From positions 9,486,001 through 9,550,000 of the forward strand of contig CM022668.1 of NCBI GenBank assembly GCA_012295275.1: a DNA stretch of 64,000 nucleotides, written 5' to 3'. The stretch is from Chrysomallon squamiferum. Taxonomy: Eukaryota; Animalia; Mollusca. Positions within the stretch are counted from its first letter, which is position 1. Each line of letters begins with the position of its first letter. Below, one piece after another: positions 14,182 through 37,074 of the stretch. The notes under the pieces are model-generated. The model was not told the origin of the DNA and did not search any database. It saw nothing but the letters and a program-made list of their open reading frames with translations. Both the position numbers and the translations under genes were made by a program.

Positions 14182-14295
14182 TCACACACCACCACCGCTA
14201 CGCTCGACCGAGATTCGTTCTGCACGGGCGCTCAGCTGTGCAGCCATAGCTAGCCTGGAGTTCGAGACAACCCCACTCTTCAAAGCACTCATTAA
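14182..14295 (-). CDS. GPD2: GPD2 terminal coding exon 16
   Basis: ttttcacag|[40 protein letters not shown]. Confidence 0.94.
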   Translation of the reverse strand, partial: LMSALKSGVVSNSRLAMAAQLSARAERISVERSGGGV

Positions 14296-17200
14296 CTGTG
14301 AAAATAAATCAACGTTTTAATTAGTAAACAAACATTACAACACACGTAAACGTTTTAATTAGTAAACAAACATTACAACACACGTAAATGTTTTAATTAG
14401 TAAACAAACATTACAACACACGTAAACGTTTTAATTAGTAAACAAACATTACAACACACGTAAATGTTTTAATTAGTAAACAAACATTACAACACACGTA
14501 AACGTTTTAATTAGTAAACAAACATTACAACGCACGTAAACATTTTATTAGTAAACAAACATTACAACAGAGGTAAACGTTTTAATTAGTAAACAAACAT
14601 TACAACACACGTAAACATTTTAATTAGTAAACAAACATTACAACACACGTAAACATTTTAATTAGTAAACAAACATTACAACACACGTAAACATTTTAAT
14701 TAGTAAACAAACATTACAACACACATGAAAAGTGGTGAGAATATTTATATAAGCATCAATTAACTGTAAAAATAAATAAACATTTTAATTATTAAACAAA
14801 AATTACAACACATGTAAAAACGTAGTGAGAATATTTATATAAGCACTAATTAAATGTGAAAATAAATTAACATTTTAATTATTAAACAAAAATTACAACA
14901 CACATTGAGAAGCATATTTATATAAGCAGTAATCAACTCATTAACTGCACATATGTAAAAAGTAATAAATTTTTATAAGATAATAATTAAAAATAAATTT
15001 GTTTTAATTAAAACAAAAAACACATTAAAAAGATACTTTTAAAAGCACTAATTAAATAAAAAAAAAAATAAACATTTTAATTATAAAACAAAAATTAATA
15101 AAGTATTGAAAAACTAAATAAAAAAAATAAATAAACATTTTTATTAAAACAAAAATTACAACACACTTAAAAAGCAGGGAGTATATTTATATAAGCACTA
15201 ATTAAATATAAAAATAAATTAATATTTTAATTATTTAAACAAAAATTACAACAAACAAAAAGGTACTGTATATTAACTTATATAAGCAATAATAAAATTT
15301 TGATAAAATAAATAAAATTATATTTATTAAACAAAAATTAATAAATAAATAAAAATATATTAATTATACAAAAATTACAAGATTAAAAAGCAGGTATAAA
15401 AAATTTATTTCTAAATAATTATTAATAAAGTGCACTTATGTAATAAGTATAAATATTTTTAATACTGATATGTGATCATACAGTAAATACAAGTGTAGGT
15501 TAGGTAATCTAATTGTAATAAAGCCAGAAATGTCTACAGAAAAGCTGTGATTTAACTGAAAATACAGTAAAGTTTTTTTTATTACCTGTAGGAATTCTCC
15601 AAGGTCAACTTGAGCATTTTTGTTGAGATCTACTTCACTGAGTATTTCATGTAGCTGATCCTCTGAAACTCTCTCTCCAATTTTCTAAACATAACGATAC
15701 TAACATTTTCACTAACAGTTTATTAATATTACTCTTGTTACTGGTAGTTTCTAGTTATTATCGTTGTTGTTAATTCTCTTTTTTTTCTAAACATAACTGT
15801 ACTAATATTTTCACTAACAGTTTATTATTACTATTACTCTTGTTAGTGGTAGTTTCTAGTTATTTTACTAATAATTTATTATTACTATTACTGATAATTT
15901 CTAGTTCTTATCATTGTTGTTAACTCTCCTGTTTTCTAAACATAACAATACAAGCATTTTCACTAACAGTTTATTAATATTACTCTTGTTAGTGGCAATT
16001 TCTAGTTATTATTATTGTTGTTGTTAATTATTCTTTTTCTAAACTTAAAAATTACTATTTTCTTTAATATTTTATTATTATTACTGTTGTTGTTACTGTT
16101 AACTGTTTTTCTAAATGTTTCTCTTATTGATGATGACAGAACTCCATTCTCTGTTGATTTTGTAAATCAATAAATATATATACACACATTTATATATTTA
16201 TATAGATATCTGAAAAATGTATGTCTATGGCAAAATTACAAAAACTATTAATAATCTCATCTTTAACTATTTTGTTCAATCATTGACTATGATCTAATCT
16301 TATTGTCTGTACTGAAATCATGTACAGGTAGGTTTTTTAAAACTATATTATTATGTGGACGACAAGAAATTCACAATATTATATAATGGTAACCATGACA
16401 ACATTAAAATAAAGTCTTAACGATATCACTTTGATGTATATCTTCTTAGATCACAGACAGAAATGTAACTTTATTGTCAGTGTTGACATCATCTATAGAT
16501 TTTGTTTTTTTAAATTATATCATATGTTGACGATAAAATATTTGCAATATTAAATGTTAGCATCCAACAACATCATAATAAAGTTGTTAACAATATCACC
16601 TTGTAGTGTTTTCTAAGATCGCTTACAGAGACGTAACTTTATTTTCAGTGTATATATTTATTTTTTTATTAACAGTATGCTAACGACAAAATAACTACAA
16701 TTATATGCTGGTTTCCAATGACAACAAAACAATATTAATCTTATTAATAAGCTAACCTTGAAGTATTTTCGCAGGTCATTGACTGTGATGTAACCTTTGT
16801 TGTCCATGTCGAGGGACTTGAATCTCTTCGCGTACATGTTGATTTCGTCCTTCGTGAAGTTGATCGGACTTTCTCGCTCTTGAGCCTTTTTGATGTCAAG
16901 ACCCATTTCCCGTCTGAGAAACCTCTGAGCTTTCTCCATTTCTTCCTGATATTCAGAAAATAGTTCTCTGATTAAAAGAATTTATTTTGTTCTTTTTATT
17001 TCTGTGATATAAATGATTATGAAATATTTCTCTGGTTAAAAAATTTATTTTGTTCTTTTTATTTCTGTGATATAAATAATTATGAAATATTTCTCTGATT
17101 AAAAGAATTTATTTTGTTCTTTTTATTTCTGTGATATAAATAATTATGAAATATTTCTCTGATTAAAAAAATTTATTTTGTTCTTTTTATTTCTGTGATA

Positions 17201-34668: not shown

Positions 34669-34756
34669 TCAGCTGCGTGTGTATTTACCCCAGATGTGAA
34701 GCATGAAGACAGATGCAATGAAGAGCAGACTCATGACTAGGACTGGAACAGGACCA
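34669..34756 (-). CDS. SEC61B: SEC61B exon 4 (tail anchor)
   Basis: [31 protein letters not shown]. Confidence 0.96.
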
Positions 34757-37074
34757 CTGAAACAAAACACATCAAAATGTAACACAAGTGACTGGGACCA
34801 CTGAAACAAAACACATCAAAATATAACAAAAGTGACTAGGATCATTGAAACACAACATATCAAAATGTAACACAAGTCACTAGGACCACTGAAACAAAAC
34901 ACATCAAAATATAACAAGTGACTAGGATTACTGAAACACAACACATCAAAATATAACACAAGTGACTAGGATCACTGAAACAAAACACATCAAAATGTAA
35001 CAGAAGTGACTAAGACCACTGAAACAAAACACATCAAAATATAACACAAGTGACTAGGACCACTGAAACAAAACACATCAAAATATAACAGAAGTGACTA
35101 GGATTACTGAAACACAACACATCAAAATATAACACAAGTGACTAGGACCACTGAAACAAAACACATCAAAATATAACACAAGTGACTAGGATTACTGAAA
35201 CAAACACATCAAAATATAACACAAGTGACTAGGATCACTGAAACAAAACACATCAAAATATAAATACATAATCAAGACACACAGAGGACCAATACAAGAT
35301 GCTGAAATAAAACAGTAGAAATGAAAATACATTAAAATTTAAATATCAGAACATATATTTTTACAGTGTCATCAAAAATATGTTGAAAATGACGTTTTAT
35401 CAGTCTACAACAAATACATGCACATATATATGAATTATCTAGCCCACATGCAGTTTAAATTAAAATAATTAGCATCTGATTAATATCCCACCATAATTAT
35501 AAATATTTAATTTTGTTAATGCTATCCTTTTGGATTAATGGTTTTGATTGGCTGTTTTAGATGTCATACCTTTTTTTTATCACTGCATCATTTAAAATTT
35601 TTGGAAATGACTTTAAAATAAAATAAGAAAAAAACCCCAACCTCTTTAAAATGGCATTTTTCACCTTAAAAATACATTAATTTATAATAATAATTTTTGT
35701 TGTTTTCCCTTACACTTTGATTCCAGGTGAGTCTTCAGTGTAAAATCTCCACATTCCAGCACTGCCAGCACCACCTTTTCGTGACGATGATGTAGTTGTA
35801 GTCGTTTTCCTGCAGTCAAAAATGAAAAAATCACACAAATTAAAACCATTTTTATTTCCCTTTATAATTTTTTTTTTTTATCGCTGGATAAGTATGTTAG
35901 TCACTTCATTCATTTATTTTTCTCCTTATTTTTTTGGCTAGTAAAATTAATTTTATAAAGTCACATAAAATGATAAAATCATTTGTACTTTTTAAAAATA
36001 ACTAGACTTTCATTTTCAAACATTTTTATTGATGCTGTCAGCAACCATTGTTTAGTTGTTTAACATTCAAGAGAGGTAAATAACAATGGTTATTAATAAA
36101 ATAGAAAAAGTAAAAAAACAGAGGACATTTTTGTCACAGTAATAGCTATGAGATGAAATTGATGGCTACACTTTATATTATTCATTTTTCCTTGCAACAT
36201 CTTTGAAGAAGAAATATTAAATATTAACATAAAACTGCTTTTCTTGTGGCTAAGATATACTATAAAGATAAACTATTTTTAAAAAGTTGTAAATGAAGTT
36301 TCCATCTGATTAACTTACTGATACTGAAATTTATTTATTTAATAATAATAAAAAGAAAAATTACCTCTGTCGAACAGTTGATCCCCCTCCTGATCTGGAG
36401 GTGACTGATTTGGACGAGGGGGACCTTCCCCCTCCTACACTTGTTGAACTTGAAGAAGGCTGAAAATAAAATAAAATAAAAACGGCATTTAAAAATAATT
36501 CAATACAGGAATAAATTATGATAAAATTCCAACCCCTCTGAATACTCAGTTAAAAATGTTTTTGTTAATTTAACTGTATCATTAGTACTACTACTACCTT
36601 TAAATAATAATAATAATAATAATAATAATAATAATAAATAATAATAATAATAATAATCAATGATTATAATCATCATCCACATTACACGATTTTGTTTTAG
36701 TAAGGCATGATTCAGAATGTGAAAACACTGAAATTCTGAATCGTAATTTATTAAATATTATCATTTAAATGAGATGCATAAAGATGATATCTAATTAATC
36801 TAAATTCACTGAAAATTAAATTTATTTACACCAGACTACTGTCGTACTGCTTGATTACACAGGAACTAGAGTTTAAAGACGCCGGCGACAGATGCTTACT
36901 TAACATCTATCATTTTCTATCATTTTTGATTTTGTACGAGAGAAATATTCAAATTACTAATTGGTTACTCAAATACTGATTAAAATAACGTAATCAAATA
37001 CTATTTCATTACTAAATTTTAATCTACAGTGTTTAGCTTTAACCGTTCAGTTAAAACGAACTTACCAGTGCCAT
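34669..37074 (-). CDS. SEC61B: Protein transport protein Sec61 subunit beta, 4 coding exons, 95 aa
   Basis: Join (minus) 37074-37066, 36459-36365, 35809-35714, 34756-34669 = 288 nt: [95 protein letters not shown]; the C-terminal half is the canonical Sec61beta signature. Confidence 0.96.
34751..35262. repeat. 44-bp minisatellite, about 12 copies; unit is the SEC61B exon-4 acceptor plus first bases of the exon
   Basis: Unit ggaccactgaaacaaaacacatcaaaatataacacaagtgacta = minus ...TGTGTTTTGTTTCAG|TGGTCC. Confidence 0.95.
35714..35809 (-). CDS. SEC61B: SEC61B exon 3
   Basis: [17 protein letters not shown]|gtaagg. Confidence 0.95.
36365..36459 (-). CDS. SEC61B: SEC61B exon 2
   Basis: ttttcag|...GRSPS...GSTVRQR AG|gtaat. 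Confidence 0.92.
37066..37074 (-). CDS. SEC61B: SEC61B coding exon 1 (MAL)
   Basis: ATG GCA CTG|gtaagt, phase 0 fits exon 2. Confidence 0.75.

Follow-up and report, generated by a model that had tools for sequence, protein, structure and literature searches.

The introns of two housekeeping genes in the 64-kb window, the whole stretch of DNA that was analysed, are crowded with minisatellite arrays lying at or just inside exon edges. The arrays belong to the mirage class of repeats, which is already known; their density and their exon-facing bias are new and were observed in this one window. We regard them as stretches of genomic DNA that were duplicated head to tail in place, at exon edges or just inside them; they are likely neutral and probably grow at the exon end through recombination-type repair, with splicing at the true sites of the tested junctions, a reading to which we give a probability of roughly one half.

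Both genes were rebuilt from the window. All 15 introns of GPD2 are of the GT-AG type and its exons join into a single open frame of 726 aa, which shares 622 of 725 residues (85.8%) with the GPD2 of Gigantopelta aegis. The second gene, which we take to be SEC61B on the basis of the first-pass annotation and the general character of its protein, also has GT-AG introns and an open frame of 95 aa.

14182..29540, minus strand: GPD2, mitochondrial glycerol-3-phosphate dehydrogenase, 16 coding exons, intact frame
GPD2 exons 1 to 8, minus strand: 29540-29430, 29112-28941, 28249-28125, 26987-26890, 26238-26075, 25511-25350, 24621-24477, 23714-23629
GPD2 exons 9 to 16, minus strand: 23304-23197, 21345-21211, 20195-20014, 19224-19093, 18196-18038, 16945-16757, 15684-15586, 14295-14182
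34669..37074, minus strand: SEC61B, coding exons 37074-37066, 36459-36365, 35809-35714, 34756-34669

Fourteen clear complex arrays are spread across the 18 introns and make up 52% of the intron DNA. All 14 arrays listed by the first-pass annotation, six on the donor side and eight on the acceptor side, were recovered, although its list had omitted the two-copy repeats of intron 6 and of the acceptor side of intron 5. Its statement that the units are mutually unrelated also holds: blastn among 17 arrays gave no match between arrays at E 1e-3, whereas the units of a single dispersed repeat or transposon family would be related.

27315..28164, minus strand: GPD2 intron 3 donor array, 88 bp x 10, each unit with 40 exon nt and the donor
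26338..26372, minus strand: GPD2 intron 4 decayed copy of the acceptor end, a single 34-bp local alignment (shuffle p 0.001), its exon part not significant
25880..26083, minus strand: GPD2 intron 5 donor array, 22 bp x about 9-10, 9 exon nt
25537..25723, minus strand: GPD2 intron 5 acceptor-side repeat, 89 bp x 2, wholly intronic, 25 bp off the exon
24871..25258, minus strand: GPD2 intron 6 repeat, 173 bp x 2, the exception, with its nearest splice site 91 bp away
23929..24500, minus strand: GPD2 intron 7 donor array, 32 bp x 18 with a 159-bp higher-order unit, 24 exon nt
21360..22975, minus strand: GPD2 intron 9 acceptor-side array, 38 bp x about 42, wholly intronic, 14 bp off the exon
20807..21170, minus strand: GPD2 intron 10 donor-side array, 60 bp x 6, 40 bp off the exon, with CTG|GTA donor-like sites
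20201..20532, minus strand: GPD2 intron 10 acceptor-side array, 24 bp x about 13, wholly intronic, 5 bp off the exon
19234..19968, minus strand: GPD2 intron 11 ATA microsatellite, embedding one decayed copy of the acceptor and exon 12 start at ~19760-19810 (p 0.002)
18688..19082, minus strand: GPD2 intron 12 donor-side array, 55-59 bp x 7, 10 bp off the exon, with 6 GAG|GTGAGT sites
16958..17586, minus strand: GPD2 intron 13 acceptor-side array, 63 bp x 10, 12 bp off the exon
16227..16796, minus strand: GPD2 intron 14 donor array, 168-171 bp x about 3, decayed, ~40 exon nt
15669..16101, minus strand: GPD2 intron 14 acceptor array, about 100-150 bp x 4, ~16 exon nt (p 0.002)
14311..15429, minus strand: GPD2 intron 15 arrays, a young intronic array of 38 bp x 11 adjoining the exon and an older 90-bp array beyond it, the latter with copies of the exon 16 start (p 0.002)
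34750..35263, minus strand: SEC61B intron 3 acceptor array, 44 bp x 12, 7 exon nt

The positions of the arrays were tested within collapsed introns, in which each array was reduced to one unit. Within this one window, whose two genes were picked for their striking look, 13 of the 14 arrays lie no more than 40 bp from a splice site, compared with 6.9-7.8 expected (P 0.0005-0.0015). The excess persists at cut-offs of 15 and 25 bp (P 0.0005-0.0036), and the addition of three decayed cases gives 16 of 17. Thus, the clustering at exon boundaries claimed in the first pass outlasts the collapsed-intron null. However, about half of the proximity effect reflects short ancestral introns, since that many arrays are expected by chance. 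Overlap with the exon does not clearly exceed chance, being found for 6 of the 14 arrays with 4.2-4.9 expected (P 0.20-0.34), or for 9 of 17 with the decayed cases (P 0.04-0.11), whereas 7 of the 8 wholly intronic arrays start 5-40 bp from an exon with only 2.1-2.3 expected. The excess stems mostly from the wholly intronic arrays; what the arrays favour is closeness to the exon edge, not the splice dinucleotide. Of the junction-anchored duplication that had been proposed, the positional part stands in this window and the enrichment of exon overlap does not clearly do so.

These results bear on a less likely alternative, in which duplications arise anywhere without bias and those touching a splice site, being undeletable on that side, keep a constrained unit, last longer and look polar, short introns supplying the rest of the proximity. 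The large chance expectation and the weak overlap signal agree with such survival, and the signal depends on ancestral intron length: it disappears at about 200 bp or less (13 of 14 has P 0.12 at 200 bp and 0.02 at 250 bp). However, the array-free introns measure 317-691 bp and the collapsed ones 222-556 bp, both above that threshold. The threefold excess among wholly intronic arrays also argues against it, as does intron 15, in which the youngest array, of 38 bp, emerged on the exon side of the older one and now sits between exon 16 and the decayed 90-bp array.

The age gradients within arrays mostly point in the same direction. Of 10 arrays examined, one gave a tie and 9 were informative; in 8 of these 9 the longer decayed tail is on the side opposite the exon (p 0.02). 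The margins are small in three arrays. Decay increases away from the exon in the intron 9 array, and the intron 13 array shows a gradient (rho -0.76, p 0.011). Thus, the earlier description of divergence as often rising away from the exon applies to most informative arrays, but not to intron 5, which runs opposite by the tail measure, nor to SEC61B intron 3, which is flat (rho +0.05). In a walk along the units, the final unit was worse than the opening one in all 11 arrays; since the walk begins in register next to the exon and is hence biased, the polarity rests on the decayed-tail measure instead.

Copies of the exon end were found in the adjacent intron at 8 of 36 junctions, compared with 3 of 612 control pairs, and these 8 junctions carry the boundary-spanning units that characterize mirages. 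Around half of the arrays begin 5-40 bp into the intron and are wholly intronic, and so fall outside the strict mirage definition; no boundary is spanned by the wholly intronic arrays of introns 5, 6, 9, 10 and 13 or by the 38-bp array of intron 15. That most units hold the exon end plus GT or AG, as had been stated, is narrowly borne out: 8 of the 14 listed arrays are clear, two are borderline (the donor-side arrays of introns 10 and 12, p about 0.03), and four, the acceptor-side entries of introns 4, 9, 10 and 13, have no significant exon copy (p 0.22 for intron 13). Exon homology was rejected for the wholly intronic arrays of introns 5, 6, 9 and 10 and for the 38-bp array of intron 15.

The copied junctions create many decoy splice sites. 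In the intron 3 donor array, GT is present in 8 of 8 probe copies, and the true donor is matched or outscored by 7 decoys. The intron 7 array has the 17 extra units noted in the first pass as up to about 17 decoys per intron, but AG|GT is intact in only 10 of them and reads TT in the other 7. Its unit has an acceptor-like end followed by GT, an AG|GT motif also found in the intron 3 unit; 7 sites equal or exceed the score of the intron's true acceptor, and 9 do so for its true donor. Such scores would suit a selected function, with stacked U1 sites or AG|GT ratchet points aiding splicing or blocking early polyadenylation. We consider this very unlikely, because the units are unrelated, of many ages and decaying, GT has been lost from 7 of the 17 intron 7 copies including the nearest, 4 of the 14 listed arrays have no significant copy of an exon end, and the GPD2 locus of another organism (L004) lacks such arrays, an absence that is weak evidence as short-read contigs break at arrays. 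That locus came from the metagenome loci, of which the best 13 of 80 (L001-L013) were examined.

Splicing was checked for GPD2 introns 4-7 in RNA contigs, which drop rare variants. Spliced contigs of runs X6 and X7, from two studies, contain exons 4-7 and the join to exon 8, with E4-E5, E5-E6, E6-E7 and E7-E8 all joined at the true sites. In both runs the true donor of intron 7 is used ahead of its 17 downstream copies. The decoys are thus ignored at these junctions, as had been supposed. However, splicing is not flawless, since exon 4 is skipped in one X6 contig. All 32 decoy donors that were modelled lead to a premature stop. First-donor choice and exon definition would keep the decoys mostly silent, and transcripts leaking through decoy donors would contain a premature stop and so would probably be cleared by nonsense-mediated decay. 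The arrays are likely harmless.

An assembly artefact or cDNA-mediated insertion is highly improbable as a source of the arrays. The comparison with other runs covers three arrays, the two of intron 5 and that of intron 7, in the form of contigs. Within that scope, variant contigs of X2 and X4 (two studies) pile up on the 32-bp array of intron 7, and X2 covers most of the 89-bp and 22-bp repeats. A single X2 contig extends from exon 6 into the second 89-bp copy; the 22-bp array is mostly spanned, with 16 inserted letters just beyond its far edge, and the long arrays are unspanned by any piece. The ordered variants and higher-order periods within the units also argue against an artefact. The cDNA-mediated repair suggested in the first pass finds no support in the units themselves, which are contiguous genomic exon-plus-intron or intron-only DNA. 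None of 18 exon-exon probes matched inside an array; 7 matched at 16 of 20 positions, of which 5 fell on the intron's own true acceptor and 2 on low-complexity DNA, and none was repeated in an array.

Arrays of at least 5 complex units are denser in the two gene bodies than outside (10 in 17.4 kb vs. 2 in 40.8 kb, p 0.0002). This density would fit DNA damage coupled to transcription or splicing, in which R-loops or polymerases paused at exon edges seed duplications in genes expressed in the germ line. TRF found no array at the ends of the single-exon ankyrin frame and none at stop codons, consistent with such damage. GPD2 is CpG-depleted (o/e 0.41 vs. 0.90 and 0.65), which also agrees with it, and methylated housekeeping gene bodies are typically CpG-depleted. 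However, exon density and expression are confounded in the window, and arrays occur on both the donor (6) and acceptor (8) sides; we consider this origin unlikely. For exons that might border the outside arrays at 10644, 50363 and 62482, a Pfam scan of 92 stop-free stretches beyond the genes gave one weak match below the cut-off.

The first-pass annotation knew of no named system with such a density of arrays. However, the same thing has been described in amphioxus and human genes. According to PMC3087553, mirage minisatellites occur in amphioxus Adh3 (Canestro et al. 2002, cited therein) and in the globins BflGb6 and BflGb9, as tandem units of 10-160 bp across exon-intron boundaries on the 5' and 3' sides; AG/GT is kept in many but not all units, splicing is normal and haplotypes differ in copy number. 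The arrays of the present window are alike in their boundary-spanning units, their presence on both sides, their reiterated and partly degraded GT/AG, and splicing at authentic sites (introns 4-7). They differ in that about 17 events occur in 18 introns of two genes of a gastropod, and in that position and polarity were tested against a null. In the human examples given in PMC1557585, namely F7 intron 7 (37 bp), 6-16, CBS intron 13, lamin B2 and PDGF intron 4, the first unit crosses the donor and is followed by 4-25 identical pseudo-sites, the most upstream site is used, and 6-16 and CBS leak to the nearest copies. These genes have one array each, on the donor side only, whereas the snail genes have many, on both sides, including an acceptor array at a terminal exon.

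Internal tandem repeats at exon-intron boundaries also occur in human segmental duplications, as described in PMC2812944, which cites the Rogers model of intron gain by AG|GT duplication (see also PMC4974935). The AG|GT-bearing boundary repeats of introns 3 and 7 resemble both; however, there is no intron gain or altered protein here, and the frame is intact. Polar growth at one end beside a flanking element is reported for human minisatellites in PMC3356730, with polar mutation described for MS32, MS205 and MS31A and no such polarity for D1S80. In those loci the polarity is measured germ-line mutation, whereas here it is deduced from decay only, and the flanking element would be the exon. A literature search, with most subscription papers outside its scope, found no genome-wide invertebrate study of minisatellite position relative to splice sites.

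Growth at exon edges by recombination-type repair would draw on the contrast between exons and introns. GC content is 47% in exons and 25% in other intron DNA, and a hand count in run X2 gave 4 substitutions in 569 exon nt vs. ~27 plus indels in ~1,185 intron nt. Exons may thus form GC-rich islands, near-identical between alleles, within AT-rich polymorphic introns. Strand exchange passing from such an exon into the intron would therefore mis-anneal at the edge and add units there, and selection on the exon-side unit, with its splice site, branch point or pyrimidine tract, would fix it as the master copy. In most animals, introns are more polymorphic than exons. Polymorphic introns are thus common, yet the GPD2 of L004 has no arrays, which was counted against exon-edge repair. 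Also counted against the preferred reading is that the apparently unique remainder of the introns may itself be decayed repeat.

A broader and more speculative extension, somewhat doubtful at present, is that exon edges are genome-wide birth sites of minisatellites in this snail lineage. Exon-facing growth would then convey older repeats inward, much of the intron DNA of housekeeping genes would be decayed junction repeat, mirages would be the boundary-crossing subset, and intron length would be set thereby. On the present scope of one window, the two genes are a densely packed case of a repeat type already described. Although mirages have been in the literature since 2002, their generating mechanism is called unclear in PMC3087553. 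If a genome held about one such event per intron, their origin could be tested there, and biased birth could be told apart from biased survival. At exon edges these arrays cause short-read assemblies to break, and they can lead gene annotation astray. SEC61B offers a natural test of acceptor choice, as the authentic site stands last in a row of 11 near-identical ones and precedes the terminal exon; the AG context is kept in 10 of 11 copies.

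Gene structures were fitted with tblastn and splice-site searches. GPD2 lies on the minus strand and has 16 coding exons, an open frame of 726 aa and GT-AG at 15/15 introns; SEC61B comprises four coding exons (95 aa). The GPD2 exon translation matches mitochondrial glycerol-3-phosphate dehydrogenases, with the gastropod Gigantopelta aegis closest by identity (622/725 identities), which suggests a host among gastropods close to Gigantopelta. CpG is depleted in GPD2 (observed/expected 0.41 vs. 0.90 and 0.65). The region 8001-12000 downstream of GPD2, without a coding match, has a ratio of 0.18; it might represent an extended 3' UTR or a gene body that escaped recognition.

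TRF and self-alignment of the 18 introns, numbered in gene direction, showed 14 clear complex tandem arrays and three decayed cases beyond these (intron 4, intron 11 and an old 90-bp array of intron 15). Of 15,296 intron bases, 8,037 fall within the 14 arrays or the old 90-bp array. All arrays listed in the first-pass annotation were found, with units about as described there, but two had been overlooked:

GPD2 intron 5 (minus strand), near the acceptor: 89 bp x 2
GPD2 intron 6 (minus strand): 173 bp x 2, the sole array lying over 40 bp away from any splice site

The units are mutually unrelated, as had been claimed, with no blastn match between any two of 17 arrays. Arrays with at least five complex units number 10 in 17.4 kb of gene body vs. 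2 in the 40.8 kb outside (p = 0.0002). Transcription-coupled damage is an unlikely origin of the arrays in the two genes. Microsatellites, excluded from the statistics, begin within ~10 bp of the acceptors of introns 11, 7, 6 and 1 (19234, 23719, 24629 and 29116).

In a short intron that is largely taken up by an array, closeness to an exon is unavoidable; therefore, each array was collapsed to one unit and placed at random in its intron. In this comparison, 13/14 arrays lie within 40 bp of an exon or overlap it, compared with 6.9 expected (P = 0.0005), or 7.8 when microsatellites are collapsed as well (P = 0.0015). The proposed excess of array edges near splice sites is thus present in this window, although chance alone would place 6.9-7.8 of the 14 there and the statistics come from a single stretch chosen for its unusual look. 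The excess persists at cut-offs of 15 bp and 25 bp, and inclusion of the three decayed cases gives 16/17 arrays near an exon. Exon overlap alone was observed for 6/14 arrays vs. 4.2-4.9 expected (P = 0.20-0.34), and for 9/17 vs. 5.3-6.3 with the decayed cases (P = 0.04-0.11). The main source of the excess is the wholly intronic arrays, 7/8 of which begin no more than 40 bp from an exon (2.1-2.3 expected, P = 0.0004-0.0007). The proximity of these arrays to exon edges is thus a clearer signal than the surplus of junction-spanning arrays over chance; this is worth following, and suggests that mirages, the minisatellites whose unit spans an exon-intron boundary, are a subset of a broader exon-edge bias. 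Most minisatellites of amphioxus Adh3 reportedly belong to the mirage class, in a 2002 study of that gene. The P value for the 13/14 arrays near exons depends on the ancestral intron length (0.12 at 200 bp, 0.02 at 250 bp). Once collapsed, the introns measure 222-556 bp, and the five that carry neither an array nor a decayed copy measure 317-691 bp, but the remaining intron sequence may conceal older repeats. Survival bias, by which arrays would be retained rather than formed at these positions in short introns, is possible but doubtful.

Searches with junction probes (12 bases of exon plus 8 of intron) showed copies in the adjacent intron at 8/36 junctions, compared with 3/612 control probe-intron pairs. 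Four of the eight are donors (introns 3, 5, 7 and 14) and four are acceptors (introns 11, 14, 15 and SEC61B intron 3). The first-pass annotation held that most units contain the exon end plus GT or AG; this is narrowly right, being clear for 8 of the 14 arrays that it listed. Donor-side exon homology is borderline in introns 10 and 12 (shuffle p = 0.030 and 0.036). On the acceptor side, a significant exon copy is absent from the arrays of introns 5, 9, 10 and 13 and from the 38-bp array in intron 15. Intron 7 does have 17 extra units, matching the upper limit of ~17 decoys (splice-site-like copies within an array) proposed per intron, but just 10/17 keep AG|GT; the other seven, including the nearest unit, read TT. 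Scoring with a matrix from the 18 true sites gave 7, 9 and 6 sites at least equal to the intron's own site in introns 3, 7 and 12, and 7 for the SEC61B acceptor. A premature stop is predicted for 32/32 decoy donors modelled. Use of the ten SEC61B decoy acceptors is predicted to yield products of 81-104 aa; these sites concern the last exon, for which the usual exon-junction rule does not predict decay. The unit of the 32-bp array (23929-24500) ends in a branch-point-like CTGAC and CAG, with GT immediately after, making intact copies both acceptor-like and donor-like; judged by its motifs, this array is a possible substrate for recursive splicing or intron gain. Introns can arise from boundary repeats in human paralogues (PMC2812944).

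Nine public runs of one organism code contain the stretch, all as contigs, and four were aligned to 24390-27005. Contigs from two studies, X6 (RNA) and X7 (listed as DNA, yet spliced), use the true sites to join exons 4-5, 5-6 and 6-7, and exon 7 exits via its first donor directly to exon 8. In these contigs, splicing thus uses the true sites of introns 4-7 and passes over the decoys, as anticipated. A selected function of the arrays is very improbable. At the intron-3 donor, 30 contig bases agree with the true site and also with the first copy. A single X6 contig of 60 bases connects exon 3 to exon 5 (28125-28155 to 26209-26242), skipping the 98-base exon 4 at a depth of 3.8 vs. 7.6 for inclusion, with a predicted product of 166 aa. 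X7 runs on for 1,090 bases, arithmetically the exact sum of exons 8-15 and a weak hint of their joining. By this length, the contig would end precisely where exon 15 does (15586), which could reflect an alternative last exon or retained intron 15. In the DNA runs X2 and X4, variant contigs heap up on the 32-bp array, and X2 covers the greater part of the 89-bp and 22-bp repeats and has 16 extra bases just beyond the latter; therefore, these three arrays are real. An exon-exon join was found in no array, which argues against the suggested cDNA-mediated repair, and an artefact or cDNA origin is hardly credible.

Fresher units tend to face the exon. With a single threshold applied to both array ends, the longer decayed tail is on the side away from the exon in 8/9 informative arrays (sign test p = 0.02; 10 examined, one tie), with three small margins and the opposite direction in intron 5 by this measure. 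Rank correlations are significant in 4/11 arrays and absent in SEC61B. The order is clearest in intron 15, in which the 38-bp array (96% match) adjoins the exon and the 90-bp array (64-89%) lies farther out. The exons have a GC content of 47% (vs. 25% in other intron DNA) and probably differ less than introns between alleles, with 4/569 exon bases vs. ~27/~1,185 intron bases plus indels in a hand count of X2 (28/153 pieces); some of these differences may be mis-placed repeat copies. Repair starting in exon homology would slip at the exon edge and add units there, while selection would keep the exon-side unit fixed; we give this explanation a probability of about 0.5. Such addition resembles the gain of units at one end of human minisatellites, D1S80 excepted (PMC3356730).

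Contrary to the view that no named system exists, boundary-spanning repeats are called mirages in the amphioxus Adh3 and globin genes, at 5' and 3' boundaries; splicing stays regular and their origin is termed unclear (PMC3087553). In human F7, 6-16, CBS, lamin B2 and PDGF, VNTRs likewise span the donor and bring as many as 25 pseudo-sites, the most upstream site being used in F7 (PMC1557585). The GPD2 and SEC61B arrays are a real, dense instance of this known kind. A genome-wide positional study of such repeats in an invertebrate was not found in the literature searched. The comparison covered 13 of 80 metagenome loci. One of these, L004, has most of a GPD2 gene across 13 kb without such an array. 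In another, L010 (2897-3000, from another organism), an exon matching GPD2 exon 13 is followed by a 38-bp donor-spanning array (four exon bases plus GT) that begins at the counterpart of the intron-13 donor and is cut off by the contig end. Therefore, on thin evidence, the array type seems to recur elsewhere in GPD2 and its density seems lineage-specific.

Outside the annotated genes, arrays of 44 bp x 14 (62482-63088) and 53 bp x 3 (10644-10798) have no identified adjoining exon. A decayed 24-bp array (50363-50965) is followed, after ~70 bp, by a short stretch (51036-51074, plus strand) that opens with ATG, terminates in a strong donor and is possibly a first exon; neither it nor a comparable stretch at ~56750-56802 has a Pfam match. 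A single-exon ankyrin-repeat frame of 295 aa (32120-33007, plus strand) lies in the interval separating GPD2 from SEC61B, opposite to both in strand, and has no array at either end. Its end resembles a SOCS box, absent from the five families shown, and the frame matches Pfam Ank_2 (E = 2.6e-34).
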